Part shown: in pieces, positions 9,901-26,026 of the stretch
Layout: every line of letters begins with the position of its first letter
Position numbering within the stretch: the stretch's first letter is position 1
DNA from: an uncultured Ktedonobacterales bacterium
GTDB taxonomy: Bacteria > Chloroflexota > Ktedonobacteria > Ktedonobacterales > JADMIN01
Length of the DNA stretch: 26,026 nucleotides
NCBI GenBank assembly: GCA_964416775.1
Contig: CAYQFU010000035.1
Location: forward strand, 5,095-31,120
Direction: 5' to 3'
Notes under the pieces: model-generated
What the model saw: the letters and a program-made list of their open reading frames with translations, nothing else
The model's database searches: none
Told to the model about the DNA's origin: nothing
Made by a program: the position numbers and the translations under genes

Positions 9901-10035
9901 TACCCGCGGTGGAAGGGCAGGCCGATCGAAGGTGGATGCACAAGCGAGGGAAACCTACCCGCGTAGGCCCTGAAGATGCGGTGCGAGAGGTTGTCGCGCG
10001 ATGACAGACAGCGCGCGACGAAAGGCAGGCACCGC

Positions 10036-10866
10036 ATGACTGGGTTCTTGATCGGGCTAGGCGTTTTCATCGTCATCGTATTGCTGATCGCACTGAGCGG
10101 CGTGCGGGTGGTGAACCAGTACGAGCGCGGCGTGGTGTTCGTATTAGGGCGGCTGATCGGCCCGAAGGGGCCGGGCATATTCTACATTCCGCCCATCATC
10201 AGCCGTATGGTCAGGGTGGACCTGCGGGTCGTCACTATCGAGGTGGCGCCGCAGGAGGTGATCACGCGCGACAACGTGACCGTCAAGGTGAGCGCGGTGA
10301 TCTACTTCTACGTGGTGCACCCCAACGATGCCGTCAACCAGGTGGTGGACTTTCTGCGCTCGACGGTGCAGATCGCCCAGACCACACTGCGCAACGTGCT
10401 GGGCCAGTCGGAGCTAGACGAGCTGCTGGCGCAGCGCGAGACGATCAACCAGAAGCTGCAGACGATCATCGACGAGCACACCGGGCGCTGGGGTGTGAAG
10501 GTGACGGCCGTCGAGATCAAAGATGTGGAGCTGCCGCAGACGATGCAGCGCGCCATGGCGAAGCAGGCCGAGGCCGAGCGCGAGAAGCGCGCCAAGGTGT
10601 TGCATGCGCAGGGCGAGTTCCAGGCGGCGCAAACGCTGGCGGACGCGGCGGAGGTCATCGCCACGGAGCCAGCGGCATTGCAGCTGCGCTATCTGCAGAC
10701 GCTGACCGAGATCGCCGTCGAGAAGAACTCCACCATCATCTTCCCGCTGCCGCTGGACCTCATCGAGCCGCTGTTGACGCTGAGGCAGGAGCACCAGGAA
10801 GGCGTGGAGCGACGCGCGCGAAGCACCCTCCCGATCGCGGCACCGCCCACAAAGGGCGACGAGTGA
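10036..10866 (+). CDS. SPFH/band-7 protein (stomatin/prohibitin-like) with a single N-terminal TM helix.
   Basis: N-terminal TM ([17 protein letters not shown]), then [16 protein letters not shown]… and the canonical …[18 protein letters not shown] motif plus an [11 protein letters not shown] coiled-coil. Start set at ATG 10036, the first Met before the TM helix. The track ORF begins earlier, at 9976. Confidence 0.8.
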
Positions 10867-12040: not shown

Positions 12041-12933
12041 ATGAAGGGGTATGGCTGGATGAAGACGCAGTCGGCGGACACGAGCGGCGAGGCGGAACGA
12101 GCGCAGATCGCGCTGCTGCGCCAGGCTACGATGGCTCGGCGTGCGGCGCTGGCGGATGATCTCAGCAGAACAGTCATCGCTCTGTCGCGGGCGGGGATGA
12201 AGCGTGCGCGGCCAGGAGCGGACGATCGTGAGCTGGAGCGGGCGTTTCTGGCGCTCAACTATGGGGAGGACCTCGCAGAGCGTACGAGCCATGTGTCAGT
12301 AGGGAGGCAGATGATGGGTGAGGCGCCGAGCATATGGGTCGCCATGACGCCGGTGATCGCGGCGCTGGAAGATCTGGGGGTAGCGTACTACGTCGGGGGA
12401 TCGGTTGCCAGCTCGGCGTACGGGATGCCGCGCGCAACGGCACACGTGGATCTCGTGGCCGACCTGAAGGCGGAGCACGTGGAGCGGCTGGTGGCCGCGC
12501 TGCAAGACGTCTACTACGTCGCCGAGGAGGCCGTGCGCGAGGCGATCGAGCGACACGCGTCATTCTCAACGCGATCCACCTCGACACGATGATCAAGGTG
12601 GACGTGTTCGTACCGAAGGCGCGGGACTTCGACCGGGAGATGCTCCGCCGCGCCAGGTCAATGGAGGCCGGAGACGGGGATACTCAGCACAGGTTCAAGG
12701 TGGCGTCGCCCGAGGACGTCATCCTGACGAAGCTGGAGTGGAACAGTATGGCCGGCGGCGCGTCGGAGCGCCAGTGGGGCGACGTGCAGGGTGTGCTGAA
12801 GGTGCAGGCGGACGCGCTGGACCTGGCCTACCTGCGGCGGTGGGCAGGTGTGCTCGGGGTGAGTGAGCCACTGGAGCAAGCGCTGGCGGACGCTGGGCTC
12901 AGCGGGCCGGCGGAGCCGCCAGCCAAATCATAG
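12041..12933 (+). pseudogene. Split or frameshifted gene. Two overlapping ORFs (12041..12592 in frame 2, 12334..12933 in frame 1) read as one protein across an apparent +/-1 shift near 12565-12570. The product is a nucleotidyltransferase-fold-like hypothetical protein.
   Basis: Frame 2 ends …AIERHASF then STRSTSTR*, while frame 1 continues …NAIHLDTMIKVDVFVPKARDFD… from the same nucleotides. The GGSVASSAYGMPRATAHVDLVADL segment resembles the GS…DxD minimal NTase motif. Both halves carry GC3-biased codon usage. Confidence 0.45.
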
Positions 12934-14436
12934 CGCGCCCAATTGGTCGAAGATCGGCTTGAGCGCGGGATAGAGCGCGCGGTACTCGGGGTAGAGCCGC
13001 GCATACACGTCCGCGGCAGCCGGATCGGGGGCGACGCGCTCGCCCAGCCGCACGCCCGCGGCACAGGCAGCGGCGACATCGGGCCACGCGCCGGCACCCA
13101 CGCCAGCCAGCAGCGCGGCGCCGAACGCCGCGCCTTCGTCCGCCTGGACGGAGACCAACTCCACGCCGAGAACGCTTGCCAGTATGCGGCGCCAGAGTGG
13201 GCTGCGCGCGCCGCCTCCAGACACGCACACCTGCTCGACGCTGCCCAGGCCAGCCTCGCCAAGCAGGGCGAAGCAGTCGCACAGGCTGAAAGCGACGCCC
13301 TCCAGCACGGCGCGCGTGAGATGCGCGCGCCGATGGCGCACGGTCAGGCCGACGAATGTGCCGCGAGCCAGAGGGTCGGGGTACGGTGTGCGCTCACCGG
13401 AGAGGTAGGGCAGGAAGAGCAGCCCCTCGCTGCCGGCGGGCGCCTCCTCCGCCTCGGCCAGCAGCGCGTCAAAGGTGAGGTCGGGGGCGAGGGTGTCGCG
13501 GAACCACTGCAGGCTGCCGGCAGCGCTGAGCGTGACGCCCATCAGGTGCCAGCGGTTGGGCAGGGCGTGACAGAAGGCGTGGAGCCGCCCCTGCGGCTCG
13601 ACGAGCGGCACCTCCGTGGGGGCGAAGACGACGCCGGACGTGCCGAGCACCAGCGACACGATGCCTGGCTGGATAGCGCCGACGCCGACCGCGCCGGCGG
13701 CCTGGTCGCCACCGCCCGCGACCACAGGAGTGCCAGCCGCCAGGCCCGTGGCTGCGGCCGCTTCGGCGTCGACGCGGCCCGTGATCTCCGGCCCCTCGAA
13801 GACGGGCGGCATCCACTCGGGCGGAATCTCCAGCGCGGAGAGCACCTCGGCGGACCAGGTGCGCGCGCGCAGATCGAAGAGCAGGGTGCCGGAGCCGTCG
13901 GCTTTGTCCATGGCGTAGTCGCCGGTGAGGCGCAAGCGCACGTAGTCCTTTGGCAGCAGCACATGGCGCATACGGGCGTAGATCTCGGGCTCGTGCTCGC
14001 GTACCCAGAGGATCTTGGGTGCGGTGAACCCCGTGAGGGCGTCGTTGCCGGTCACCTGGATCAAGCGCTCCCGGCCGATGCGCGCGCGAATCTCGTCGCA
14101 CTGGGCGCCGGTACGCTGATCGTTCCACAGGATGGCTGGCCGGAGCACCGCACCGGAGGAGTCGAGCGCGACGAGGCCATGCATCTGGCCGGTGAGGCCA
14201 ATGGCGGCCACGCGGTCGCCCGCTGCGCCAGCCTGATCAAGGGCGCGGCGGACGCTGGCGGCGACGCCCTGCCACCAGTCGTCCGGCCGTTGCTCCGACC
14301 AGAGTGGGCGGGGTGTGGAGAGCGACAGCGGTGTGGTGGCGCTGCTGACCACGCGGCCGTCGCCGGCGATCAGCAGCGCCTTCGCGCCTGTGGTGGACAC
14401 ATCAATACCCAGAAACAGCGGCTCTTGCGCCATCAC
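12928..14436 (-). CDS. xylB: Xylulokinase (FGGY carbohydrate kinase).
   Basis: N-terminus LFLGIDVSTTGAKALL (FGGY motif 1), GQMHGLVALD, …WNDQRT, and C-terminal FGGY_C region, 502 aa. It lies immediately downstream of xylA on the same strand. Confidence 0.85.
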   Translation of the reverse strand: MMAQEPLFLGIDVSTTGAKALLIAGDGRVVSSATTPLSLSTPRPLWSEQRPDDWWQGVAASVRRALDQAGAAGDRVAAIGLTGQMHGLVALDSSGAVLRPAILWNDQRTGAQCDEIRARIGRERLIQVTGNDALTGFTAPKILWVREHEPEIYARMRHVLLPKDYVRLRLTGDYAMDKADGSGTLLFDLRARTWSAEVLSALEIPPEWMPPVFEGPEITGRVDAEAAAATGLAAGTPVVAGGGDQAAGAVGVGAIQPGIVSLVLGTSGVVFAPTEVPLVEPQGRLHAFCHALPNRWHLMGVTLSAAGSLQWFRDTLAPDLTFDALLAEAEEAPAGSEGLLFLPYLSGERTPYPDPLARGTFVGLTVRHRRAHLTRAVLEGVAFSLCDCFALLGEAGLGSVEQVCVSGGGARSPLWRRILASVLGVELVSVQADEGAAFGAALLAGVGAGAWPDVAAACAAGVRLGERVAPDPAAADVYARLYPEYRALYPALKPIFDQLGAL

Positions 14437-14495: not shown

Positions 14496-15677
14496 TCACC
14501 GGACGCCGAGCAGCAGCTCGACGGTGAGCTGGTCCAGCCGCTCGTACGCCAGCCCGCGCTGGCCCAGGGCTTTGCGGTCGAAGCTGGCGTCCTTGAGCGC
14601 GGCTGCTTTGGCGACGCTGTATGCGCCCTGGTAGGCGGCCGTGGCGCCGTCATCGGCCTGGATTTCGGCCAGCAGCGCCTGAATTTCGGCGTCCTGATGG
14701 AAGCGCTGGGCTTTCTCCTTCAGAATCAGGTAGGTGCGCATGCAGCCGCGAGCGAAGTCCTTGACGCCGTCGTAGTCCTCGGTGCGGTAGGCGTGGGCGT
14801 CGAAATGGCGGCTGCCGCTGTAGCCGACGTCTTCCAGCAGCTTGACGAGAAAGAAGGCGGTCTTGAGGCTGTGGGAGCCGAAGCGGAAGTCCTGGTCGTA
14901 GCGGCCGTACACCTGGTCGTTGAGGTCAATGTGGAAGAGCTTGCCGGCGTCCCATGCCTGGGCGACGGCGTGGACGAAGTTGAGGCCGGCCATGTGCTCG
15001 TGGGCCATTTCGGGGTTCACGCCGATCATCTCGGGGTGGTCGAGGGTGGCGATGAAGCCGAGCATGGCGCCGACGGTGGAGAGATAGATGTCGCCGCGCG
15101 GCTCGTTGGGCTTGGGCTCCAGGGCGAAGACGAGGTCGTAGTGCTGGTCGCGGACGTATGCGCTGAGGAAGTTGATGGCGTCGCGGAAGCGCTTGAGGCT
15201 GTCGCGGGGGTCTTTGGTGGCATCGGACTCGGTGCCTTCGCGACCGCCCCAGAAGACGTAGACTTTGGCGCCCAGCTCGACGCCGAGGTCAATGGCGCGC
15301 ATGGTCTTCTGCAGGGCATAGGCGCGGACGCGAGGATCGTTGGCGGTGAAGGCGCCGTCCTTGAAGGCGGGGTCGGTGAAGAGGTTGGTGGTGGCCATGG
15401 GGACGACGAGGCCGGTCTCGTCGAGGGCGGCTTTGAAGTCGCGGACGATGCGGTCGCGGTCGGCGGGGGTGGCGTCGATGGGGACGAGGTCGTTGTCATG
15501 GAAGTTGACGCCGTAGGCGCCGACCTCGGCGAGCAGATGGACGAGGGCGACGGGTGAGAGGGGCTGGCGCACTGGCTCGCCGAAGGGATCGCGGCCGATG
15601 TTGCCGACGGTCCAGAGGCCGAAGGTGAAGTGGTGCTCGGGTTTGGGCTGGTAGGTGGGCTGAGCGGCGGACGACAT
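14496..15677 (-). CDS. xylA: Xylose isomerase (class I, about 390-aa actinobacterial/Thermus type).
   Basis: …[25 protein letters not shown]… matches the conserved class I XylA N-terminus. FHDNDL, WGGREG and FEPKPNEP motifs. Start chosen at the Met of [14 protein letters not shown] (15677) with an AAGGA RBS upstream. The track ORF extends to 15725. Confidence 0.85.
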
Positions 15678-15698
15678 GGGGCATCCTTTCATCACAAA

Positions 15699-15728
15699 CC
15701 CATGAGAGGGCGCGGGGCGCCGCATGGG
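15699..15728. promoter_or_regulatory. Imperfect 30-bp palindrome / hairpin (cccatg-aga-gggcgc-gg-ggcgcc-g-catggg) immediately upstream of the xylA start. Candidate operator or 5'-UTR structure.
   Basis: Outer arms cccatg/catggg and inner arms gggcgc/ggcgcc, read directly in the sequence. It lies 22 nt upstream of the xylA ATG on the transcribed strand. Confidence 0.35.
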
Positions 15729-16027
15729 TCTGGTGTGGAACGCGTGGGGGTGCCTGGCCTCCCTCCGAGCTTTACACCGGCGAGAGGCGCGACGTCAAGG
15801 GAAGGGGCGGTGTAGCACCAGAGTATTGGGCATGAGCTGGTCAACCTGAATAGAGGGCGGCGCAAGAGAACGGTCGTTAAGTCTTGCAGAGGAATGGTAC
15901 AATTGTGCCGCAGCAATAAGGCATCTTGAGCGATTGCTCGCGCGTCGGGTGAGGCAATGTTTTGTTGTCTCGTTTTAGGGATGTACGATTTCTCATTGAC
16001 GCGTGCTGGCGTTTTGTTCGAGGAGTG

Positions 16028-16057
16028 CACGCGCGTGTATCGCGGCATGATATCATG
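16028..16057. promoter_or_regulatory. Two adjacent perfect palindromes (cacgcgcgtg at 16028-16037; catgatatcatg at 16046-16057) in the AT-richer region upstream of the giant helicase gene. Candidate regulator-binding sites.
   Basis: Both are exact reverse-complement palindromes, read directly in the sequence. They lie about 105-135 nt upstream of the ATG at 16164. A further 7-bp-stem hairpin ggacgcg-cctc-cgcgtcc sits at 16077-16094. Confidence 0.35.
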
Positions 16058-16163
16058 GGCGGCGGACCGATGTACAGGACGCGCCTCCGCGTCCCGTGAC
16101 GACCTATCACAGCACGAGTAGAACGAGTAGGATGCACGACTAAGCCAGGAAGTTGGGGGAACA

Positions 16164-19100
16164 ATGGCGCTGAGCACCAAGTTGCAACAGTGGCAAGCAT
16201 ATCTGCTCGACATGAGTAAGCGCAACAAACTGTTGTACTTCTCGTTGGACCGGCACCCTGGAATAGCGTTCCGCATCGATGTCCCGGCCATGCTGTATGG
16301 ACGCCTGACTACGAGCCGCAAGCCCATCAGCGTCTCTGATCTGCCGAACGATGCGGATCCGGACGAGCTCGACGAGAAACTGAACCGCCTGCGCACACGG
16401 GCGCGCGAAGCACTCAATGACCGCGGCACGAATATCCTCTTCCTCACGTTCGGTTTGCTAGAGTGGCGCGAGGCATCCAGTAGTGATGAGGTGATACGCT
16501 CGCCGCTCGTGCTGGTGCCCGTGCAGCTGCAGCGTGCGAGTATCGCCGCACCGTATCGGCTGCAACTGCTCGAAAATGAAGAGATCACGGTCAATCCCAC
16601 GCTGCGAGAGAAGCTGCGCCGTGACTTTGGAATCGAGCTGCCGGCGTCTCTCGAAGAGATGGATGATGACAGCGACACAGCGGGCGAGTCGAGCACGGAG
16701 AGGGCTGCAGCGCGCCTGGAGGCGACATTCGATGTGATTCGCCAGACAATACCACAGGAAGCGAAGAACTGGGCGGTCAAGCCGGCAGTGTATCTGAGCA
16801 TCTTCTCGTTCACAAAGCTAGTGATGTATCAGGACCTGGAAGACCATAAAGCGCTCGTGCTGAAGCATCCTGTGTTACGTTCCATCGGGGGAGAGTCGCG
16901 TTTGGCTGTGCGTGAGTCCAGCATGCGCGCAGAAGATCTGGACGACAAGCTGCGACCGCATGAAGTCGTTCAGGTGCTTGACGCCGACTCAAGCCAGCAG
17001 ATGGCGATCCAACGGGCTAAAGATGGGGCCAGCTTCGTGTTGCAAGGCCCACCAGGCACGGGGAAGAGCCAGACCATTGCGAATATCGTCGCGGAGTGTC
17101 TGGGGCAGGGCAAGCGCGTACTTTTCGTCAGCGAGAAGATGGCGGCGCTAGAGGTCGTGCAGCAGCGTCTGAAGGATGTCGGATTGGGAGACTACTGCCT
17201 GGACTTGCACAGTCACCGGTCAGACAAAAAGGTGTTGCTGGAGGAGTTGCGACAGTGCCTCGATGAGGCAGGCTCGCCGCGTCGGGCTAACGCCGCGGCT
17301 GATTGGGAACGCCAGTCGGGCAGACTGTTCGAATCCCGCCAGGAGCTCAATGGTTATGTGCGTGCGCTGCATGCGAAGCGCACGCGCCTGGAGCGTTCGG
17401 CATTCGAAATATACGGTGTGCTGGCGCGCCTGCACGACGTGCCCGACCTGGATTGCACGTTGCCCGATCCCATCACGATGACGCAGGCGCAGCTCGATGC
17501 TTTCGAACGCCTGCTAAGTGACTTTTTGACACGTGGTGACGTGCTCGTGGATCAGGCGGTCCATCCTTGGCGCGCGACGCGCCTGGAGACGTTTACCGAG
17601 GCAGTCGCAGCCAACATCAAGTCGCACTTTGAGCGATGCGCAGCACTGCTCAGGCAGACGCACGACGCTGTGAGCACGCTGGACAATGTTCTTGGCGGCG
17701 CCGACCTAGCGCATACGCAAGACGGCGCATTACGTGGACTTGCCCTTGCTGATGTGGCCGTGCGCACCCAGCTGCCTGAAGCGGCATGGCTCACGACGTC
17801 CGATCTGGCGGGGCTGCGACATTCAGCTGCGGAGACGGCGGCTCGGGCGGGAAGACATGAGGAACGCCATGCGCAGTTCACGAAGCTGTATGACCCACAG
17901 GCTATCGAGCTAGACCCTGAGCCCATCAGCGAGGCCCTGACGAGCGCAAGCGCCACTGCGATCGGCAGGTTGCAATGCGAAGGCACAGGGCCAATGGCGG
18001 ATCCACACGATGTCGCGTTGGCGTGTGCCGACGCGCTGGAGGAGCACCTGGTACATGCGGCGGAAGTGTTGGAGCGCATGACCATGGACGCTGCTCAGGT
18101 GGCGCAGATTCTGGAGCAGGTGGCGCCGACGACTCCGCAGGCGATCGCCGATCTGGCCGACCTTGCCGCGCATATCGTCGCCACTCCGCAGCCACCGCTG
18201 CGGTGGCTCAATCGCGATGAGTTCGCCGTCGCGCAGGTCGCCATGATAGACGCCGCGGAACGCTACAGGCGCGTGAGTTTGGTAGGCACAGAGCTGATGA
18301 GACGCTATCAGCCGTCAATGCTTCAGCTCAACCTCAAGCTGCTGGACGATCAGTTCAGCACCCGTTATCGGTCCATGTTACGGATTGTACATCCCGGATT
18401 CTGGCGGCAGATTCAAGATGCCAGGGCATGCCTGCAACCAAAGGTGAACCGCACAGCCAGGGAGATCGTCGCTGATGTGCATCAGGCGCGGGCGTTGGTA
18501 GACGAAGAGTCGTTCTTGCGTGATCAGCGCGTGGTCCACGCGAGTGCGCTGGGTACACACTTCGCGGCCCATCAGACAAATTGGGCGGCAGTCCATAGTG
18601 GGTTGGCATGGACCGGTCAACTACATCAACTCCTCAGTGGAGAGCGGCCGAACCAGCGGATGGAAGCGCTCATCACGGGCAATACGAGCAAGCTGCAGCC
18701 ACTGCGCGCGAGATTGCAGCGGCTGCATGCGAGCGTAGAGGAATGGCGCGCGGAGCAAGCTTACCTGGAGGATACTCTGCTTCTCGACGAGCTGCCGGGC
18801 GACGCGTTCACGCTTGACGAAGCCGATGCGGGGGCGCTGCGCGAGTGGCTGCTGGCACTGGTAGACATGCTACGCCCGTACTGGGCGGCGGCGCGCACGC
18901 TGGCGAGCCTACGCCCAACGTTGCCGGAGTTAGCAGCAAGGCGGTGGGCTGAACTGCTGGACGACATCCGATTGATTCGTGAACTGCGGGCGTCTCGTGC
19001 ATGGTTCCAGGCGCATGAGAGTCAATTGCGCGAGACACTCGGTTCGTTCTACGACGGACTAGAGACGGACTGGACCGCGATAAATCAGGCGTTGGCCTGG

Positions 19101-21479
19101 TGTGACGAGCTACGGAGCACCTGGGGCGGCAAACCCATACCGGCGTCGTTGGTCATCGTGCTCTCCCGTGAAGGCGACGAGCGAGCCCGCATGAAATTAA
19201 TGGCGGCACGCGATCAGACTCGACACCTGATGGAGTCGCTGCGGGCGGAGTGGGCGTTCTACGAAACGGTATTGCCACTAGAGGCGCTGGCACCGGCAGA
19301 CGGCACGCCATTCGCCGCTACCCCACTCACGGAACTGGCCGACCGGCTCATGATACTGGTGCATGAGCTGCCCAGGCTGGAGCAGTGGACTGACTTCAGG
19401 CGTTACTGGAAAGCGTGTGAATTGAACGGACTGGGCTCGTTCGTCGACGCGGTCACACGGCAGATTCCCGTACCGACCAATCTACTGGACCTATTCCATA
19501 AGCGGCTCTACCAACTCTGGTTGGATGCGATATATCGCGACGTGCCCGTGCTGGGGCGTTTTCGCGGCACGACGCATGAGCAGACGATCGAGCGCTTCCG
19601 GCAATTGGACGAAGAGCATATCGCACTGGCGCGCAAGCGTCTTGCCGCGTCGCTCGCAACCATGCGAACGTCCGCCATCGCAAGTGCCGCGTCCACTGAT
19701 GACGGCGAGTGGCGTGCTACCGGCGCAGGGCCCGCAGCGGGGACATTCAGTAGGCAGCTGAGTTATCTGAGGCGCGAGATTGGCAAGAAGCGACACCCCT
19801 CCATCAGGCAGATCATCCAGTCGGCCGGGCTGGCAGTCGTGGCACTGAAGCCGTGCTGGATGATGAGTCCATTGAGCGCCAGCCAGTTTGTCGTGCCGGG
19901 GGCGGTAGAGTTCGACCTCGTGGTGTTCGATGAAGCGTCACAGATCTGTCCCGAAGACGCGATCTGTTCGATTCTGCGCGGCAAGCAACTGATCGTGGTT
20001 GGCGATCCCAAGCAGTTGCCGCCTACGCGCTTCTTTGCCAAGAGTGTCAGCGATAGCATCACCGAAGATGGCGACATCGAGGAAGAGCTCTTCGAGAGTA
20101 TTCTGGATGAGTGCTCACCGGTCATGCCGGCTTACTCGCTGCTGTGGCACTACCGCAGCCAACACGAGTCTCTCATCGCGTTCTCGAATCACCACTTCTA
20201 TGACGATCGACTGTACACCTTCCCAGGTCCGCAGACGGAGCATAGAGAAGGTGTGGGCTTCGAATATGTTGAGAATGGACAATACGATCGCAGTCGGTCG
20301 CGCACAAATCCAATCGAGGCCGCGCGTGTGGCAGATCTGGTGATAGAACATTTCGACTGGCATCCGGAGCGTTCCCTGGGCGTGGTGGCGTTGAGCGAAG
20401 CGCAGCAGAGCGCGATTGACCACGAGCTGGCGTTGCGCCGGCGCAGCCGGCCGGATTTGGAATCGTTCTTTGACGAGAACGCGTTGAGCCCATTCTTTGT
20501 GAAGAACCTGGAAAGCGTCCAAGGCGACGAGCGAGACGTAATCATCCTCAGCGTCGGCTACGGGAAGGACGCGACGGGCCGCCTCTACCAGAACTTCGGT
20601 CCGATCAATGGCGCGGGCGGCGGCCGCCGGTTGAACGTGGCCGTCACCCGAGCCAGGCATCAGGTAATTGTCGTGAGCTCGATACGCGCCGATGAGCTCA
20701 ATGTTTCTAGCGCACGGAGCAGCGGCGCACGACTCTTGCACGCCTATCTCGACTATGCCGAGCACGGGCCGCGGACGCTTGGGGAACAAGGGCCGGTCGT
20801 CACGGAGGGGGATGACGCCACGCCGACCTTCGATTCCCCCTTCGAGGAGGACGTGTATCAGGCACTGGTTGCGTGCGGCTTGACAGTCGCAACGCAGGTG
20901 GGCTGTTCAGGTTACCGCATTGACCTGGCTATTCGCGATCCGCACCGGCCGGATCGCTACGTGCTGGGCGTGGAGTGCGATGGGGCTACGTACCACTCGT
21001 CGCATACGGCACGCGACCGCGACCGATTGCGCCAGCAGCACCTGGAGCGCCTGGGATGGCAGATCCATCGCATATGGTCGCGCGATTGGATACGGGATCG
21101 AGAGCATGAGATCCAGAAGGTGATGGACCGGCTGGCCATGCTGCGCGAGCAGTCGCCTGCGCCGGTCGCTGCTCTGAAAAGTGCGCTTACACCGGCGACT
21201 CCACCGGCACGCACGACCGGCACGTCGACGGCAGCTCAGCCTGTGCGGTTGACCAGCGTCGCTCCAGCATACACCCCACCGCCGCGAGCGGCAGAATCAG
21301 TGCCTGTGCAGGCGCTCAACACAGGTACGCACACGTGCGAAACGTGCACACATTTCATGGCAAAGACCTCGACGGCATTCTTGTGCCTGCATGATGCCAC
21401 TATTAAGCGGCGTGACCCCAATGGGCAGACGCCAGGCTGCCCTGGATGGAAGCGCCTTCAGGCACGTGCGACGCAGTAG
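16164..21479 (+). CDS. Giant (1771 aa) multidomain protein: an N-terminal DUF4011-like region, a Upf1/DNA2-like SF1 helicase core with a very long insertion between Walker A and Walker B, a C-terminal Vsr/DUF559-like PD-(D/E)xK endonuclease domain, a Pro/Thr linker and a Cys-rich tail. Hhe-like single-gene defence candidate.
   Basis: GAAGTTGGGGG RBS-like purine run before the ATG. DUF4011-like LFLTFGLLEW…SPLVLVPVQLQR…NPTLREKL. Walker A VLQGPPGTGKSQTIANIV (about aa 295). DEAS box LVVFDEASQ (about aa 1256), then QLIVVGDPKQLPPT (motif III), …WHYRSQHESLIAFSN (motif IV-like), and GRRLNVAVTRARHQVIVVSS (motif VI). Vsr-like GYRIDLAIRD…YVLGVECDGATYHSS…RLGWQIHRIWSRDWIRDREHEI. The gene has markedly more A/T-ending codons than its neighbours. 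Confidence 0.85.
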   Translation: MALSTKLQQWQAYLLDMSKRNKLLYFSLDRHPGIAFRIDVPAMLYGRLTTSRKPISVSDLPNDADPDELDEKLNRLRTRAREALNDRGTNILFLTFGLLEWREASSSDEVIRSPLVLVPVQLQRASIAAPYRLQLLENEEITVNPTLREKLRRDFGIELPASLEEMDDDSDTAGESSTERAAARLEATFDVIRQTIPQEAKNWAVKPAVYLSIFSFTKLVMYQDLEDHKALVLKHPVLRSIGGESRLAVRESSMRAEDLDDKLRPHEVVQVLDADSSQQMAIQRAKDGASFVLQGPPGTGKSQTIANIVAECLGQGKRVLFVSEKMAALEVVQQRLKDVGLGDYCLDLHSHRSDKKVLLEELRQCLDEAGSPRRANAAADWERQSGRLFESRQELNGYVRALHAKRTRLERSAFEIYGVLARLHDVPDLDCTLPDPITMTQAQLDAFERLLSDFLTRGDVLVDQAVHPWRATRLETFTEAVAANIKSHFERCAALLRQTHDAVSTLDNVLGGADLAHTQDGALRGLALADVAVRTQLPEAAWLTTSDLAGLRHSAAETAARAGRHEERHAQFTKLYDPQAIELDPEPISEALTSASATAIGRLQCEGTGPMADPHDVALACADALEEHLVHAAEVLERMTMDAAQVAQILEQVAPTTPQAIADLADLAAHIVATPQPPLRWLNRDEFAVAQVAMIDAAERYRRVSLVGTELMRRYQPSMLQLNLKLLDDQFSTRYRSMLRIVHPGFWRQIQDARACLQPKVNRTAREIVADVHQARALVDEESFLRDQRVVHASALGTHFAAHQTNWAAVHSGLAWTGQLHQLLSGERPNQRMEALITGNTSKLQPLRARLQRLHASVEEWRAEQAYLEDTLLLDELPGDAFTLDEADAGALREWLLALVDMLRPYWAAARTLASLRPTLPELAARRWAELLDDIRLIRELRASRAWFQAHESQLRETLGSFYDGLETDWTAINQALAWCDELRSTWGGKPIPASLVIVLSREGDERARMKLMAARDQTRHLMESLRAEWAFYETVLPLEALAPADGTPFAATPLTELADRLMILVHELPRLEQWTDFRRYWKACELNGLGSFVDAVTRQIPVPTNLLDLFHKRLYQLWLDAIYRDVPVLGRFRGTTHEQTIERFRQLDEEHIALARKRLAASLATMRTSAIASAASTDDGEWRATGAGPAAGTFSRQLSYLRREIGKKRHPSIRQIIQSAGLAVVALKPCWMMSPLSASQFVVPGAVEFDLVVFDEASQICPEDAICSILRGKQLIVVGDPKQLPPTRFFAKSVSDSITEDGDIEEELFESILDECSPVMPAYSLLWHYRSQHESLIAFSNHHFYDDRLYTFPGPQTEHREGVGFEYVENGQYDRSRSRTNPIEAARVADLVIEHFDWHPERSLGVVALSEAQQSAIDHELALRRRSRPDLESFFDENALSPFFVKNLESVQGDERDVIILSVGYGKDATGRLYQNFGPINGAGGGRRLNVAVTRARHQVIVVSSIRADELNVSSARSSGARLLHAYLDYAEHGPRTLGEQGPVVTEGDDATPTFDSPFEEDVYQALVACGLTVATQVGCSGYRIDLAIRDPHRPDRYVLGVECDGATYHSSHTARDRDRLRQQHLERLGWQIHRIWSRDWIRDREHEIQKVMDRLAMLREQSPAPVAALKSALTPATPPARTTGTSTAAQPVRLTSVAPAYTPPPRAAESVPVQALNTGTHTCETCTHFMAKTSTAFLCLHDATIKRRDPNGQTPGCPGWKRLQARATQ

Positions 21480-21602
21480 CTAACGCGGTGCACCAGCACT
21501 GCATACGAGGCCACGTGCGAGAACGATTCTACCTGGCGGGCGCGGCGATTGGCGCAAGCGGATCGTCGCGGATGTGTGGGAAGTCCGCGTGCCTGAAAAG
21601 GC

Positions 21603-21626
21603 GGCCCTGGCGAGATTGCCAGGGCC
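21603..21626. terminator. GC-rich hairpin (ggccctgg - cgagattg - ccagggcc) in the convergent intergenic region between the helicase and adh. Possible factor-independent terminator, though it lacks a clear U-tract.
   Basis: Perfect 8-bp inverted repeat with an 8-nt loop, read directly in the sequence. It lies about 125 nt after the helicase stop and about 155 nt after the adh stop on the opposite strand. Confidence 0.3.
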
Positions 21627-21780
21627 GTGCAGATAGGTGCCGTAGTACACACGCGGAAAGTGTCAGAGCCTGTTATGCCCGCTGGGGCATGCGCATTGGG
21701 TGCCCTGACCCCAAGGGGTGGAGCAAGCCAGCGGCTGCGCATCAGCTATGACGAGTCAGCCGCTCTGCGCGCTCGGTGGG

Positions 21781-22980
21781 TTATGGCCTTGTCGTCTGCT
21801 GCGTTGCCTGTTGCATCGCCTGCTGCTCGTACTGTTGCCAGTTCGGCATGGGGTGGAGGATGACCTTGGTGTAGCCCTCGATCCGCTTGTCGAACTTCTC
21901 GTACGCTGTGGGCGCTTGCTCGATCGGCAACTCGTGCGAGACGACGAAGCTGGGCTTGGCGCGGCCGGCGATGATCATGTCGCGCAAGAAGCGGTTGTAC
22001 TGGGACACATTGCACTGGCCAGTGCCCAGCGCGAGTCCCTTTTCGAAGAGCTTGCCAAAGGGGATGAGCAGGTTGCCCTGCTTGGCTTGAGGATCCGGAG
22101 AGCCTGGATCGGTTGGGACGTATAGGCCAGGAATGCCCAGGACGCCCGTGGGGTTGACGACCTGGATCAAGGCCGAGAGCACCACGTTGGGGACTTCCTG
22201 CGCTTTGGCCGGGTCAACAGCCTGATAGCCGACGGCATCGATGCCTTTGCTGACCCCGTTGCCTTTACGCATGTCTCGGATCTGTTGAACAGGATCGCCT
22301 TTGCTGAAGTCGATGGGGATGGCGCCGATATCCTTGGCTTTGTTCAGCCGCTCGGGCACTCTGTCCACCACATAGACTTCGGAGGCACCACGGAGCAGCG
22401 CGCTGTACGCGGCCATCAGCCCGACAGGGCCCGCCCCAAAGATCGCCACAGACTCGCCGGGCGTCAGGCGGGCTAGCTCTGTGCCGTGGTAACCGGTGGG
22501 GAAGATATCGGCCAGGAGGATGAAATCTTCCTCGTGCTCGGTGCCCGGCGGCAGTTTCAGCGCATTGAAGTCGGCGAACGGGACGCGCAGCAACTCGGCC
22601 TGACCGCCCCTGTACGGGCCCATGGCGACGTACCCATATGCGCCGCCGGCGAAGCCTGGATTGACCGTCAGGCAGTACCCCGTATACCCACGCTTGCAGT
22701 TCTCACAGAAGCCGCAGGCGATGTTGAAGGGCATCACCACACGATCGCCCTTCTTGAGGCTCACGACTCCTGGGCCAATCTCCTCGACAATGCCCATGTT
22801 CTCGTGGCCGAAGACAAGGCCGGGTTGGGCGGCCGTGCGGCCCTCGTACATGTGCAGATCGGACCCGCAGATGGCTGTGGACGTGATCCGGACAATCACA
22901 TCACTGGGGTGCTCGATCTTGGGATCGGGCACGTTCTCGACGTCAACTTTGAATGGCCCCTTGTAGACGACGGCTTTCAT
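21781..22980 (-). CDS. fdhA: Zinc-dependent alcohol dehydrogenase (MDR family) of the glutathione-independent formaldehyde dehydrogenase type.
   Basis: MKAVVYKGPFKVDVENVPDPKIEHPSDVIVRITSTAICGSDLHMYEG…GHENMG (catalytic Zn ligands Cys, His). Structural-Zn Cys cluster CGFCENCKRGYTGYC. Rossmann motif AIFGAGPVG. Length about 399 aa, matching FdhA-type enzymes. Confidence 0.8.
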   Translation of the reverse strand: MKAVVYKGPFKVDVENVPDPKIEHPSDVIVRITSTAICGSDLHMYEGRTAAQPGLVFGHENMGIVEEIGPGVVSLKKGDRVVMPFNIACGFCENCKRGYTGYCLTVNPGFAGGAYGYVAMGPYRGGQAELLRVPFADFNALKLPPGTEHEEDFILLADIFPTGYHGTELARLTPGESVAIFGAGPVGLMAAYSALLRGASEVYVVDRVPERLNKAKDIGAIPIDFSKGDPVQQIRDMRKGNGVSKGIDAVGYQAVDPAKAQEVPNVVLSALIQVVNPTGVLGIPGLYVPTDPGSPDPQAKQGNLLIPFGKLFEKGLALGTGQCNVSQYNRFLRDMIIAGRAKPSFVVSHELPIEQAPTAYEKFDKRIEGYTKVILHPMPNWQQYEQQAMQQATQQTTRP

Positions 22981-23646
22981 CTGCTCTCCTCCTGAGAGTC
23001 TCGATGGCTGTGGAGCAGCGCTCTCGGGCTACCGCGAGCGCATGCTCGGCCAGCCTGGGGGCACGCGACACCATTGACGCTTGCTCTGTGGACGCACTAC
23101 GTCTCCGCACGGGCCGTCCGCGGGCGCCAAACAGCGAACACCTTCGCGCAGGCGTGGGCGTGTGCCGCAGATGGTATGCCACGAGCAGCCAACCGAACCC
23201 TGTCATGTAGGTGCGCCAGGCTGCCTCAGCGCGGCCGTCGCGAGCCATAGAGCCCCAGCGCGCCAAGTCAGGCGGAGGCGCGCTGGGTGCGGCTTCAGGG
23301 CCCAGCGCACCTTTCGGACGCTGAGCCCGGCGGCACAGGCCAGATCCACCGGGCGCGCAGAGCGCCAGCCTATTTCACGTCCAACATTCAACTCCAATTG
23401 GAGGATTTGCCCGTTCCCGTGCGCGCTTCCGAGCGACCGCTGGGTGTGAGAAATGAGCGCCTCATCGCTCGCTACACCTATACCCGCGAGGTGAGATGCC
23501 GCTCCGCTCGGGCGTAGCCCTGGCGCCGCGATCCGCGGTTATCAGCACGAACCCTCAAACTTTGCATCGGTGTCCTACGCTGGAATCGTACCGGGTCGAG
23601 AGCGTGCGCACGCGATGTCCGTAAAATGCGGAACGGAGGCATTGGC

Positions 23647-24087
23647 ATGCCCGGCTTTATCCCCTGGAGCAAGATAGACCTGCCGCTACGTGCCACCCGC
23701 TCGATCTGGGTCGCGACGACCCGCCCAGATGGGCGCCCGCATGCCGTTCCCGTGTGGTATGTCTGGGACGGTACCAGCCTGTACTTCATCACGCGCCGCG
23801 ACATGCAAAAGGCGACGAATCTGGCCGCCCAGCCCTGGATCGTCGCACACCTCGGCGACGGCGATGACGTGGCGATCCTCGAAGGCTCCGTCGAAGTCGT
23901 CTCCGATCCCAGCGAGCTCAGCCGCATAGACGCCTTGTACGGCGAGAAGTACGTCGCCCCGCGCAGCGGCGCCCGCGACACGATCTTCCACGACCACGCG
24001 AACCTCTATCGCCTGCTCGTGCGCCACGTCATGGCCTGGGAATATGGCGACATCTCCACGCGCACCGACTGGCGCTTCGATCCGTAG
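23647..24087 (+). CDS. Pyridoxamine 5'-phosphate oxidase-fold (PPOX-class / split-barrel flavin or F420-binding) protein.
   Basis: …IWVATTRPDGRPHAVPVWYVWDGTSLYFITRRD…QPWIVAHLGDGDDVAILEGSVEVV is the typical PNPOx-like split-barrel pattern. Start set at the ATG at 23647, which has a GGAGG RBS at a 7-nt spacing. The track ORF starts at 23626. Confidence 0.7.
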   Translation: MPGFIPWSKIDLPLRATRSIWVATTRPDGRPHAVPVWYVWDGTSLYFITRRDMQKATNLAAQPWIVAHLGDGDDVAILEGSVEVVSDPSELSRIDALYGEKYVAPRSGARDTIFHDHANLYRLLVRHVMAWEYGDISTRTDWRFDP

Positions 24088-24145
24088 CCTCAGGACCCGG
24101 CCATTACCCTTGCCTCACGCAGCCATCCACCATGGGAGCGCAACT

Positions 24146-25165
24146 ATGGAACTCAATCAGGCTCCGCACCATGATGTCATCGCCGCGGCCCTCTGCCGGC
24201 TCGGTCGCGACCCGGCCGGTCTCGCCGGCTTTCGGGTCCTGGCGGGTGGCATTTCTGGCTCCGCGGTCTACGCTCTGCGGTGGGCTGGCGAAGATCTCGT
24301 GCTCAAGACGACATTGCCAGGCAGCCCTGACGGCGTAGTCGCCCGCGCTCGCCATGAAGCGCTCTACTACGAGCAGCTGGCCGTCCACATCCCCCTGCGC
24401 GTCCCGGATGTGCGCGCCCTGGCGAACGACGCATGCGGCGTCGCCATCCTGTTGCCCGCTTACCTGCCGCCTCTCCCCGTGGAGCGGTGGACCGAGGAAG
24501 CCAGCCTGATCGTCGCCTCGCAGCTGGCAAGCCTCCACAGCGCCTTTTGGGGTGACACGGCAAGCCGGCTCGGCATGTCCTGGCTGCGCCGGAGACGCCC
24601 CCTCCCGCTGGCGCTCCGGCGCGAGCGCGCTGCGTCTCGCTGGAACGAGCTCGTCCATCCTGAGTCCCGCTCGGGTGTCCTGAGTGCGTCGCACCTGCGG
24701 GCGGTCTGGGCTGGCCTGGACCGGCTGGAGGAGCTCGCCGCCGCTCTGCGCGAGCTGCCCCTGACGCTGTGCCATGGCGACTGCCACCGTGAGAACCTGC
24801 TGCGCACGCCCGACGACCAGCTCGTCTGGGCCGACTGGCAAGAGGTCCATCGGGGTCGGGGGGTCGTGGACCTCGTATTCTTCTGCGAGCGGGCGCTCTT
24901 CGACGGCGCCACGTTCCCTTACGAGCACATGCTCCAGGTCTATTGTGATCGGTTGGCCGAGCGCGCCGGTCGCAACTTTCGGCTTGCCACCCTCCAGCGC
25001 GCCGCCGCCAGCGCCGAGCTGCTTTCCTGGCTGCTCGACTGGCCGCCGTTCCTGCTGCGGGCATCCCCCGCCGAACTCGTCCGCGTCCTCGATCGCATCC
25101 AGGTGATCTGCCTCATGCTGGATTCTCTGCCGCGCTGCCGCGCCATTGGGTCCATCAGCGAGTAG
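24146..25165 (+). CDS. Phosphotransferase-enzyme-family kinase (APH / choline-kinase fold).
   Basis: Brenner-type catalytic loop LCHGDCHRENLLR and downstream WADWQEV…GVVDLVFF (Mg-binding D). ATP-binding-region Lys (VLKTTL). Start chosen at the Met of MELNQ, which has a GGGAG RBS at a 7-nt spacing. The track ORF begins at 24044 and overlaps the previous gene. Confidence 0.7.
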   Translation: MELNQAPHHDVIAAALCRLGRDPAGLAGFRVLAGGISGSAVYALRWAGEDLVLKTTLPGSPDGVVARARHEALYYEQLAVHIPLRVPDVRALANDACGVAILLPAYLPPLPVERWTEEASLIVASQLASLHSAFWGDTASRLGMSWLRRRRPLPLALRRERAASRWNELVHPESRSGVLSASHLRAVWAGLDRLEELAAALRELPLTLCHGDCHRENLLRTPDDQLVWADWQEVHRGRGVVDLVFFCERALFDGATFPYEHMLQVYCDRLAERAGRNFRLATLQRAAASAELLSWLLDWPPFLLRASPAELVRVLDRIQVICLMLDSLPRCRAIGSISE

Positions 25166-25296
25166 AATATCTGTAATGCCTGCGAGGGCCAGCGCGCAAG
25201 TGGTGCATGCTTGTGGTCAGAAGCTGTGGCATAAGGGACGCAGTATTCACCTGTCGAGAGGCAGACTTGATCAATGGTCCGGTGTGACGGGAGAAA

Positions 25297-25962
25297 GTGA
25301 TCTTGATCGTGGATCAGTTAGAAGTCGCGGCGAAGGCTGAGCCGCCACTGCGCGATGAAATTATCCGCACGTTGGCTGATGCAGCAAGGCAAACCCCTGG
25401 CGTCTATCAGGAGCTTTTCACTGTGCTCGTCCGCGACAAGGAGCTGGCGGATGTCGCCACGATGGTGGTTAGAGCAATCGGATACCCACAGAATGCGACG
25501 GCCATCCCGGCGCTGATTTACTACGTTTGCGATGCAAATGCTCCCGCCGCGCCCGACGCCCTGGATGCACTGCGCGATATCCCTGCGAATGTGGTCGTGC
25601 CATACATCGTTGAAATGCTCTGGGATCGGGGAGCAACCAACAAATGGTGGAGCAAAGACGTGCAAGGGCTTGCCTATGCATTGCGGCAACTGGGAACGGA
25701 GTATGCACTTCCTTGCGCACCCGTGATCGCCTACTTGCTCAGTGATCCAAAGTTGCGGGCCATAGTCTATGTGCCGGCGTTGCTGGAGGTCATCGAAGCG
25801 ATCGGGCCGCAGAACGCTACTTTTGCGTTGCCGGCGGTGCTCGACATCGTCGAACAGCATGGCGCAAGCGAGGTGAGAGCATGTGCGAGGCGGCTGGTGG
25901 AGTCGTTCGCCGAGCACACGCTCGCTGTATACCACAGAGTTATGCCGCCCGCCAATTCTTGA
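25297..25962 (+). CDS. Hypothetical all-alpha protein, possibly HEAT/ARM-like repeats. GTG start, lower G+C than the core genes.
   Basis: 221-aa ORF with a repetitive helical pattern (…IPALIYYVCD…, …VVPYIVEMLWD…, …VIAYLLSD…, …LPAVLDIVEQ…). GGGAG sits 3 nt upstream of the GTG. It has more A/T third positions than the upstream genes. Confidence 0.45.
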   Translation: MILIVDQLEVAAKAEPPLRDEIIRTLADAARQTPGVYQELFTVLVRDKELADVATMVVRAIGYPQNATAIPALIYYVCDANAPAAPDALDALRDIPANVVVPYIVEMLWDRGATNKWWSKDVQGLAYALRQLGTEYALPCAPVIAYLLSDPKLRAIVYVPALLEVIEAIGPQNATFALPAVLDIVEQHGASEVRACARRLVESFAEHTLAVYHRVMPPANS

Positions 25963-26026
25963 TTTGTAGCCTTTCTACGGGTATGTCAATTGCCTTCGCC
26001 CACCTCAGCTTGCATGGGTATGCTGA

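Follow-up and report, generated by a model that had tools for sequence, protein, structure and literature searches.

Hhe is reported in a preprint, which cites earlier work, to be active against lambda, T3, T7 and PhiV-1, and hence is more than the bioinformatic proposal described by an earlier reading of the present locus (the sequence-only reading). According to the preprint, the nuclease mutation E1731A abolished the weak protection given against T7, and no protection was obtained against T4, irrespective of whether the phage DNA contained ghmC, hmC or plain C. A screen gave seven T7 DNA-metabolism genes as candidate Hhe triggers, and the toxicity of Bas63 g40 was limited to cells carrying hhe. 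The family is very large and is already modelled in PADLOC and NCBIfam. We found no primary literature for ProA and no paper mentioning PDC-S37 (PDC systems are computational candidates, mostly unvalidated). As our literature search also gave no description of a family-wide mechanism, what is to be gained from a further member lies with the family and not with the locus.

The gene described here lies in a 26,026-nucleotide stretch of DNA (the window) from an uncultured Ktedonobacterales bacterium. We consider it fairly probable that the gene is functional and by itself encodes an anti-phage (anti-foreign-DNA) helicase-nuclease of the DUF4011 superfamily, to which Hhe and ProA also belong. Single-gene degradation of phage DNA seems its most likely function, the defence role being assigned by homology only.

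Locus and domain architecture

The gene stands alone between genes of sugar and alcohol metabolism (Table 1), as had been claimed. The Pfam matches of the neighbouring window genes are metabolic and none of the 10 other window proteins matched a PADLOC model, so that the locus lacks the known defence or mobile-element neighbours of a defence island. We looked at the locus for traces of insertion, in the form of direct or inverted repeats on its flanks, tRNA genes and integrases, and for promoters and terminators, and found nothing above chance. The purine-rich sequence GGAAGTTGGGGG, the 3' end of which lies 4 nt upstream of the ATG, is a putative ribosome-binding site. The promoter presumably lies in the upstream spacer, but a search of the + strand there gave no sigma-70-like site and thus the promoter was not located. 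The downstream spacer gave no terminator-like site.

Table 1 Features of the candidate gene and its neighbours in the window
Feature	Positions	Strand	Remarks
FGGY kinase	12928..14436	-	Upstream of candidate gene
Xylose isomerase (XylA)	14496..15725	-	Upstream neighbour of candidate gene
Upstream intergenic spacer	15726..16163	+	Divergent from xylose isomerase gene; GC 0.578
Candidate gene	16164..21479	+	Complete ORF, ATG start, 1771 aa plus stop; DUF4011 / SF1 helicase / Vsr-like nuclease / 4-Cys tail
DUF4011	16203..16616	+	aa 14-151; Pfam E 7e-28
RecA1, first part	16989..17186	+	Walker A G295PPGTGKSQT304; motif Ia VLFVSEKMAALEVV; AAA_19/AAA_30 at aa 276-336
Insert between Walker A and motif II	17187..19763	+	aa 342-1200; about 860 residues, family-specific
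Rest of RecA1 plus RecA2	19764..20693	+	AAA_11 C-terminal part aa 1248-1288; AAA_12 aa 1306-1506
Vsr-like PD-(D/E)xK nuclease (MTES_1575)	20841..21134	+	aa 1560-1657; Pfam E 2e-38, 130.5 bits vs cut-off 38.2
Pro/Ala/Thr-rich linker	21156..21323	+	About aa 1665-1720; predicted disordered; pLDDT 56-65, no secondary structure
4-Cys module	21330..21455	+	About aa 1723-1764; C1725-x2-C1728-x12-C1741-x17-C1759-x2-W1762
Downstream spacer	21480..21780	+	Convergent with alcohol dehydrogenase gene; GC 0.651
Zn-dependent alcohol dehydrogenase	21781..22980	-	Downstream neighbour of candidate gene

The gene has a GC content of 0.612 vs 0.694 for the DNA on its left, and its GC3 of 0.709 is the lowest of the window, the 15 neighbouring genes having values of 0.795-0.900. 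An RSCU-based distance did not make the gene an outlier, and therefore the atypical codon usage noted by the sequence-only reading rests on GC3. Of the AT-richer flanks that it had also noted, the upstream spacer fits the description but the downstream spacer does not. A metagenome contig contains a 99.7% identical copy of window positions 15336..21681, which within the ORF differs by 10 non-synonymous and 7 synonymous changes. The gene was not taken to be phage-borne, as only 6 of 50,697 phage records gave matches and these were mostly partial.

All of the motifs picked out by the sequence-only reading are present in the translation (GPPGTGKS, residues 295-302; DEAS, 1256-1259; VAVTRAR, 1492-1498; and DLAIRD, VECDG and GWQIHRIW within 1587-1638), and Pfam matches agree with its view that a single 1771-residue protein combines DUF4011, a Upf1-type SF1 helicase and a Vsr-like nuclease. 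Of the HMMs it had named, DUF4011, AAA_11/AAA_12, MTES_1575 and Hhe gave matches, but the DUF559 match was weak and fell under its cut-off, and DUF3320 gave no match. The well-folded N-terminal module extends to about residue 245, beyond the DUF4011 match. Motifs I, Ia, II, III, V and VI of the Upf1-like SF1 helicases are all present. The Walker A and motif Ia residues are invariant in 35 homologues, and the later RecA motifs (II, D1256EASQ; III, VVGDPKQLPP; WHYRS; V, SVQGDERD; VI, NVAVTRAR) are likewise invariant across homologues. Searches of PDB sequences with the helicase part gave IGHMBP2, Upf1 and Sen1, with E values of about 1e-10. Judged from these motifs and matches, the motor is a split Upf1-like SF1 helicase core. 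The long insert that splits it gave only noise in a Pfam scan at E <= 10 and has no alignable counterpart in Hhe or ProA. Within the clade the insert is conserved, with invariant residues that include W469, W542, W681, W807, W816, W861, W970, W979 and W1119. Since the motifs are intact, we rejected the possibility that the gene is a pseudogene.

The nuclease domain satisfies the marks of the Vsr/DUF559/MTES_1575 group in its Pfam gathering score, its fold and its acidic catalytic residues. Residues D1587, E1604, D1606, Y1610 and H1611 are invariant, and the predicted structure has pLDDT values of > 90. Foldseek matched the model to I-Bth0305I (3r3p, TM 0.80), NGO0050 (3hrl, 0.73) and Vsr (1cw0, 0.52), which bears out the Vsr-like fold proposed earlier; a PDB sequence search with the domain gave a marginal RAP-domain match alone. 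The VECDG of the candidate aligns with the IECDG of Klebsiella Hhe, and E1604 is invariant in 50 homologues. By way of the Klebsiella Hhe alignment, E1604 probably corresponds to the catalytic E1731 of E. coli Hhe.

I-Bth0305I, the catalytic domain of which was the best fold match, is a homing endonuclease, and together with the 10 non-synonymous and 7 synonymous changes in the metagenomic copy this match would fit a selfish or decaying element, either a gene akin to those of homing endonucleases or a relic that has lost its activity and survives by chance. We regard such an origin as very improbable, given that the 5.3-kb ORF is unbroken with all catalytic motifs invariant in 35-50 homologues, that flanking repeats, an intein or intron context and a target-site signature are all lacking, and that the substitution counts are too low to show relaxed selection.

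Comparison with Hhe, ProA and PDC-S37

In PADLOC the top model was PDC-S37 (1388.6 bits, E = 0, four matched stretches) and Hhe scored 661.8 bits (E 5.5e-199), whereas in NCBIfam ProA scored 1277.4 bits and Hhe 947.4 bits, both with E values that are effectively 0. Hence, Hhe was the best-matching defence model in neither collection. The NCBIfam Hhe score lies below the 2000-bit cut-off of the Hhe equivalog (NCBIfam NF042953; PADLOC PDLC02194), and the ProA score below the 1500-bit cut-off of the ProA equivalog (NCBIfam NF058533). PDC-S37 is both the best match, as judged on HMM score, and a single-gene system; as it is the top model, PADLOC would probably label the gene PDC-S37. Given that ProA and PDC-S37 outscore Hhe and that the Hhe cut-off is not reached, the accurate label is 'Hhe/ProA superfamily'. 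We propose the annotation 'DUF4011 helicase-nuclease, Hhe/ProA superfamily (PADLOC PDC-S37-like)', not 'Hhe'.

BLASTP against the PGAP-named Hhe of a Klebsiella plasmid gave 41% identity over residues 1070-1669 of the candidate (E 7e-122) and 32% over residues 66-480. Against the ProA example, the 2221-residue P. aeruginosa plasmid pHPA0875-2 protein WP_003086141 (2372 bits with the ProA model, over the cut-off), the identities were 42% over residues 1021-1664 and 34% over residues 6-430. Hhe and the candidate are both single polypeptides in which DUF4011 precedes an SF1 helicase that is split by a long insert, with an MTES_1575/Vsr-like nuclease after it; the ECDG catalytic block is kept and there is no partner gene. 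The proteins differ in that about 600 central residues cannot be aligned, the candidate is 140 residues shorter, and the C-terminus of Hhe consists of about 130 other residues in place of the Pro-rich linker and 4-Cys module. Moreover, the DUF4011 match spans about 280 residues in Hhe vs about 140 in the candidate, and thus Hhe seems to carry an insertion there. Their surroundings also differ: Klebsiella hhe is part of a plasmid island that also includes DUF262 genes and IS elements, whereas the candidate is chromosomal and has no defence neighbours.

ProA, the best-scoring named family in NCBIfam, has the same domain order but exceeds the candidate by about 450 residues and has about 400 extra residues at its N-terminus; PGAP names it a DUF3320 domain-containing protein. 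Like the DUF3320-bearing majority of the superfamily, ProA has DUF3320 after the nuclease, a domain that the candidate lacks. The 1550-position PDC-S37 profile runs about 200 positions beyond the nuclease, where the candidate has its own tail. The Upf1-like SF1B helicases (Upf1, IGHMBP2, Sen1/SETX, Dna2 and ZNFX1) share the motor motifs and an accessory insertion inside RecA1, but the sequence match is limited to a C-terminal part of the core of about 300 residues (E 1e-10), and they have no counterpart of the DUF4011 domain, the 860-residue insert, the Vsr-like nuclease or the tail. On these scores and alignments the candidate is a divergent Chloroflexi relative of Hhe and ProA, a homologue but not a strict Hhe member. 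The divergent, single-gene, Hhe-like system of the sequence-only reading thus holds, with the domain order of Klebsiella Hhe, HMM matches to Hhe, ProA and PDC-S37, and no partner over 68 loci. In other respects the candidate is unremarkable within a large family that is already known, its only distinction being the small 4-Cys tail of its clade.

Genomic contexts and function

The nearest relatives are 40-58% identical and belong to the same order, Ktedonobacterales, many MAGs of which carry a homologue; P0002-P0005 cover 100% of the protein. Judged from the homologues of the neighbouring XylA, too, the host is Ktedonobacterales-like. A scan of GTDB found the family to be patchily distributed over bacterial phyla and archaea (the single protein gave nothing as a query, and the alignment-based scan picked up L034 as the sole member of the close clade). 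By tblastn, matches were found on 599 plasmid records, some of them partial, and in many of the Klebsiella records hhe adjoins DUF262 genes and IS elements. No family was common to more than 3 of the 126 immediate neighbours at 68 family loci and, as no neighbour recurs, a two-gene system was rejected. Few of the immediate neighbours matched defence models.

The closest homologues on long contigs lie amid housekeeping genes. Two of them (L004 and L006) adjoin the same pair of gltX-like and aspS-like tRNA synthetase genes, and a Thermomicrobia homologue adjoins mutL and valS. These contexts, the metabolic neighbours in the window, the rarity of adjoining defence genes and the presence of a homologue in many Ktedonobacterales MAGs would suit a housekeeping or stress enzyme of DNA metabolism (Dna2-, Sen1- or Upf1-like) that processes stalled forks, R-loops, flaps or damaged host DNA and is inherited mainly vertically in the order, as would a report that places a DUF4011 gene in the core genome of P. 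aeruginosa. We think such a role unlikely. Location varies among close relatives: the gene is missing at the xylA site where XylA is 85% identical, and homologues of 55-58% identity are located elsewhere. Within the order the candidate protein is only 40-58% identical vs 82-87% for XylA. In addition, the family is patchy over phyla and found on plasmids, both named relatives are annotated as anti-phage, and the GC3 is depressed. The sequence-only reading had named strictly syntenic core orthologues remote from defence islands as contrary evidence. The contexts are unrelated and the location is not conserved; the locus and its nearest homologues all lie outside defence islands.

In weighing a defence function we counted in its favour the intact architecture and motifs, the Hhe, ProA and PDC-S37 scores and the BLASTP matches to Hhe and ProA. 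The reported Hhe activity, E1731A effect and triggers were counted likewise, as was the match of the nuclease model to Vsr, DUF559 and I-Bth0305I. To the same side we assigned the lack of a shared neighbour (as expected of a single-gene system), the patchy family, the plasmid matches, the non-conserved location, the lowest GC3 and the neighbourhood of one Ktedonobacterales homologue, which lies amid terminase and antirepressor genes. Counted against it were the mostly unvalidated status of PDC systems, the failure to reach either equivalog cut-off, and a locus with no defence neighbour, integrase, tRNA or repeat. On this side also stood the housekeeping contexts of homologues, the few defence matches among neighbours, the core DUF4011 gene of P. 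aeruginosa, and a central third, which may determine sensing, that cannot be aligned with Hhe or ProA.

An anti-phage helicase-nuclease of this kind might act in the following order. The Upf1-like SF1 motor, the DUF4011 module and the insert would engage phage DNA or replication/recombination intermediates, and ATP hydrolysis would power translocation or unwinding. The tethered Vsr-like PD-(D/E)xK nuclease would then cut the DNA such that phage replication stops; should cleavage extend to the host's own DNA, the result would be abortive.

The target might instead be other mobile DNA (plasmids, conjugative elements or transforming DNA) or modified DNA, attacked in the manner of type IV restriction rather than phages specifically. 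By fold, the nuclease family (MTES_1575, Vsr, DUF559) is restriction-endonuclease-like. On a conjugative plasmid Klebsiella hhe directly adjoins two DUF262 genes, DUF262 being the domain at the N-terminus of type IV restriction enzymes of the GmrSD type. We found no literature evidence on the substrate preference of any family member, and the preprint's T4 result was the same for each form of cytosine; we hold this choice of target to be quite improbable. If the anti-phage function is correct and the gene is active, single-gene immunity by a helicase-nuclease of the Hhe/ProA type would extend to the Ktedonobacterales (Chloroflexota), an order for which we found no paper on anti-phage defence, although we made no dedicated search for one.

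The C-terminal tail

The Cys-rich tail noted by the sequence-only reading is real and conserved (C1725, C1728, C1741, C1759 and W1762), its motif being found in 22 of 120 listed homologues. The 4-Cys module is predicted to form short beta strands with pLDDT values of 87-94 and may be a zinc-ribbon-like metal site. No Pfam family matches the tail, a scan of which gave only noise, and DUF3320 (PF11784) is not matched in the candidate protein even at E <= 10 on the tail. DUF3320 is absent from the candidate's clade and present in more distant homologues, from P0058 onward. A profile search of 1.84 billion representative proteins with the tail gave 12 matches, 7 of which are full-length homologues already listed and 3 of which are C-terminal fragments of the family (the other two, P0244 and P0245, were left unread). 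By these searches the module is restricted to the candidate's own clade.

Held on a flexible linker in the place that DUF3320 has in most relatives, the tail would probably be a metal-stabilised module that binds DNA or a partner or is autoinhibitory. A bolder and rather doubtful proposal is that the Ktedonobacterales clade forms a third functional lineage beside Hhe and ProA, in which DUF3320 has given way to a tethered metal-binding 4-Cys module (Zn or Fe-S) that controls the nuclease or detects a trigger peculiar to the lineage. If true, this would be a mode of sensing or regulation unseen in the characterised members. With its 4-Cys tail instead of DUF3320, the candidate is in any case a natural variant for probing the role of the C-terminal module. 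An alignment of 21 tails has 8 invariant columns, and the linker differs between homologues in both length and sequence.

Domain architecture and predicted nuclease fold

Pfam searches established the domain composition of the helicase-nuclease (see table), and the DUF4011 module, SF1 helicase core and Vsr-like C-terminal nuclease domain proposed in the sequence-only reading were all recovered, as were all the motifs it had quoted from the translation. The DUF559 match was weak and DUF3320 gave no match in the scan of the protein. A putative purine-rich ribosome-binding site ends 4 nt 5' of the ATG, a start codon that is credible because residue 14 already opens DUF4011. From the Walker A motif (aa 295-302) it is ~950 residues to motif II (DEASQ, aa 1256-1260). 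The Pfam scan found no match in ~860 of these residues (aa 342-1200), an insert that is conserved within the clade and carries a row of invariant tryptophans.

Features and profile matches of the helicase-nuclease, and flanking features of a Ktedonobacterales MAG homologue (L034)
Feature	Position	Strand	Source	Score or remark
Helicase-nuclease ORF	window 16164..21479	+		uninterrupted, ATG start, 1771 aa
DUF4011	aa 14-151		Pfam	E 7e-28
SF1 helicase, Walker-A part	aa 276-336		Pfam AAA_19, AAA_30	
SF1 helicase, remainder	aa 1248-1288		Pfam AAA_11	
SF1 helicase, remainder	aa 1306-1506		Pfam AAA_12	
MTES_1575, restriction-endonuclease-like domain	aa 1560-1657		Pfam	E 2e-38, 130.5 bits (cut-off 38.2)
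PDC-S37			PADLOC	1388.6 bits, E = 0
Hhe			PADLOC	661.8 bits, E 5.5e-199
Anti-phage protein ProA			NCBIfam	1277.4 bits (curated cut-off 1500)
DUF4011 domain-containing anti-phage protein Hhe			NCBIfam	947.4 bits (curated cut-off 2000)
L034 homologue, flanking features	L034 4479-7378 and 16528-17121			

The structure of aa 1535-1771 was modelled from an input alignment of 50 sequences, and the nuclease domain was predicted at pLDDT >90. Its fold matches in the PDB by Foldseek were the catalytic domain of I-Bth0305I (3r3p, TM 0.80 on target), the DUF559 protein NGO0050 (3hrl, 0.73) and E. coli Vsr (1cw0, 0.52), with RAP-domain proteins also among the matches. Hence, the predicted structure confirmed the Vsr-like nuclease fold that had been read from the sequence. 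Residues D1587, E1604, D1606, Y1610 and H1611 of this domain are invariant in the family.

A Pro/Ala/Thr-rich linker, disordered in the model, leads to the tail, which was confidently folded (pLDDT 87-94) as a small beta module. The extra Cys-rich tail first noticed in the sequence proved to have the motif C1725-x2-C1728-x12-C1741-x17-C1759-x2-W1762, which is C-terminal in 22 of the 120 homologues listed (P0001-P0120), all in the closest clade; an alignment of 21 tails has eight invariant columns. A search of 1.84 billion representative proteins with a 49-position tail profile (E <= 0.001) gave only 12 matches: seven full-length homologues already listed, three C-terminal fragments of the helicase-nuclease family and two further proteins (P0244 and P0245). 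No Pfam model for the tail was found. The tail is a real module restricted to its clade, and most simply it would be a putative four-cysteine metal site, with Zn or an Fe-S cluster as the candidates. The clade is set apart by the lack of DUF3320 and, in a subset that includes the window protein, by the tethered four-cysteine module.

Relation to Hhe, ProA and PDC-S37

The scores against the NCBIfam models of Hhe and ProA were high yet fell under both curated cut-offs, and thus the protein is a homologue of both and an equivalog of neither. By sequence this homology is unambiguous. The earlier proposal of an Hhe-like system therefore stands as homology, by both HMM and BLASTP comparison, and fails as strict membership of Hhe. 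PADLOC models MkoA and MkoC scored far lower than PDC-S37 and Hhe; PDC systems are computational 'guilt-by-embedding' candidates, mostly unvalidated. PADLOC and NCBIfam models already cover this architecture and the family with its defence annotation, and there are thousands of such proteins.

As references we used a PGAP-named hhe product (1911 aa) from a conjugative IncF Klebsiella plasmid and a P. aeruginosa plasmid protein (2221 aa) whose 2372 bits on the NCBIfam ProA model exceed the cut-off. BLASTP aligned Hhe at 41% identity over aa 1070-1669 of the window protein and at 32% over aa 66-480, and ProA at 42% and 34% over similar ranges, whereas the central third aligned with neither. The Pfam domains of Hhe follow the same order, and its IECDG aligns with the VECDG (E1604) of the window protein. 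The P. aeruginosa protein is named only 'DUF3320 domain-containing protein' in its PGAP record, and its gene (L093:4774-11439) adjoins a ParDE toxin-antitoxin pair, bacteriocin PaeM and another helicase.

A preprint, citing earlier work, describes Hhe as a system with a Vsr nuclease and with activity against lambda, T3, T7 and PhiV-1; the same preprint reports that the E1731A substitution in E. coli Hhe abolished its weak T7 protection. Other preprints report seven T7 DNA-metabolism genes as candidate triggers from a screen, toxicity of Bas63 g40 only in hhe cells, and a phage gene acting as an anti-hhe factor. The Hhe literature found gave no mechanism. In the best-supported reading, the window protein is probably a single-gene anti-phage helicase-nuclease with a mode of action like that of Hhe and ProA. 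Its Upf1-like motor, driven by ATP, would bring the Vsr-like nuclease to foreign DNA or phage replication intermediates, and DUF4011, the insert and the tail would supply recognition or control. Substrate, trigger and phenotype we infer from homology at 32-42% identity; that the specificity is instead anti-plasmid or type IV-like seems improbable.

Distribution and genomic neighbourhoods of relatives

The homologue search returned >7,700 proteins. The nearest, 99% identical, is encoded on a metagenome contig of 6.3 kb, which aligns gap-free with window 15336..21681 at 99.7% identity. Of 18 differences, 17 fall inside the ORF (16164-21476) and one in the ~1 kb of flanks; the 10 non-synonymous and seven synonymous changes are too few to interpret. 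We consider a selfish or decaying element very improbable. Next come three homologues at 55-58% identity and then dozens at 40-45%, many labelled Ktedonobacterales. This close clade is without DUF3320, whereas proteins of about 1,890 aa that are 33-39% identical carry it. The host is Ktedonobacterales-like because the adjacent xylose isomerase, XylA, shares 82-87% identity with proteins of Ktedonobacterales and Chloroflexi; against these values, the 40-58% of the helicase-nuclease indicates much greater divergence than a housekeeping enzyme shows in this order.

In GTDB species genomes, an alignment-based scan confirmed at least 597 loci (proteins of about 1,400-2,500 aa), spread over many bacterial phyla and archaea (Bathyarchaeia, Methanosarcina, Methanosarcinales). 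There were tblastn matches in 599 plasmid records, some partial over the protein, and the family was almost missing from phage genomes (6 of 50,697 records).

In relatives with an 85% identical XylA, no DUF4011 gene lies on that side of xylA and other genes are found there; in one (L089:4957-7634), the xylA-upstream region corresponding to the helicase-nuclease position is occupied by a MutS2-like gene and by a toxin-antitoxin pair of the nucleotidyltransferase/HepT-like (MNT-HEPN) type. The 55-58% homologues adjoin HMA and PrsW genes, or EF-G, and a Thermomicrobia homologue adjoins mutL and valS. Two ~45% homologues from different metagenomes or MAGs (L004:5222-9718, L006:16778-19969) both lie beside a gltX-like (tRNA-synt_1c) and aspS-like (tRNA-synt_2) pair, a partial synteny with housekeeping genes that fits a purely mobile defence gene oddly. 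Such housekeeping surroundings, and the wide occurrence of the clade within Ktedonobacterales, suggest a possible chromosomal DNA-maintenance role; we consider this main rival unlikely, in view of the variable location, rapid divergence, patchy phyletic spread and carriage on plasmids.

The flanks of the L034 homologue encode a T4-type terminase large subunit, an HTH protein and a P22 antirepressor N-domain protein, which suggests a prophage or prophage remnant next to the gene, and another homologue has a UvrD/PD-(D/E)xK/M78 protein about 5 kb away. On the Klebsiella plasmid (L092:3674-7160), hhe is directly downstream of two DUF262 genes amid IS110, Tn3-family and group II intron elements, and the region looks like a compact defence islet. 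For 68 GTDB loci, 126 immediate neighbours were scanned, and no Pfam family recurred in more than three of them; a handful matched PADLOC models (BrxHI-like, SngC and mad6, two each, for example), several through generic helicase, kinase or ATPase models. The family is without partner gene or fixed location, and no clear defence-island embedding of these immediate flanks was seen. The sequence-only reading had set its proposal against a strictly syntenic core gene outside defence islands: location does vary, and the immediate flanks lack clear embedding in defence islands. In P. aeruginosa, a published analysis notes that a DUF4011 gene belongs to the core genome and flanks a defence hotspot.

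The locus in the window

The gene stands alone between a sugar operon and a dehydrogenase, as first read: it diverges from xylA-xylB on one side and on the other converges with a Zn-dependent alcohol dehydrogenase gene. Other window products are an ANTAR regulator, PSP1, SPFH proteins, peptidases, an amidohydrolase, PCMT, Nramp, a CHAD protein, PNPOx and an APH-like kinase; none of 10 other window proteins scanned matched PADLOC. In the window we found no tRNA genes, no repeats flanking the gene, and no promoter or terminator signals exceeding chance. The atypical codon usage ascribed to it holds for GC3 (0.709 versus 0.795-0.900 in 15 neighbour genes) and not for RSCU distance, which is unremarkable. 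Its GC is 0.612 versus 0.694 for the DNA on its left.

Elsewhere in the window, a 389-aa ORF (39-1208) has strong coding-like GC3 (0.82) and no Pfam or PADLOC match. Two overlapping putative + ORFs of 183 and 199 aa (12041-12933), between the CHAD gene and xylB, likewise had no Pfam or PADLOC match and have middling GC3 (0.70-0.78). There are two SPFH/Band 7 genes (3026-4924 and 9976-10866), the first encoding 632 aa with the SPFH domain only at aa 203-353 and long unannotated flanks. Window 21500-26026 has a GC of 0.59-0.68, below that of the left 15 kb (0.69), and therefore the compositional shift extends beyond the helicase-nuclease gene; within it, GC3 is down to 0.66-0.67 in the ORF pair 25297..25962 (+) and 25318..25935 (-).
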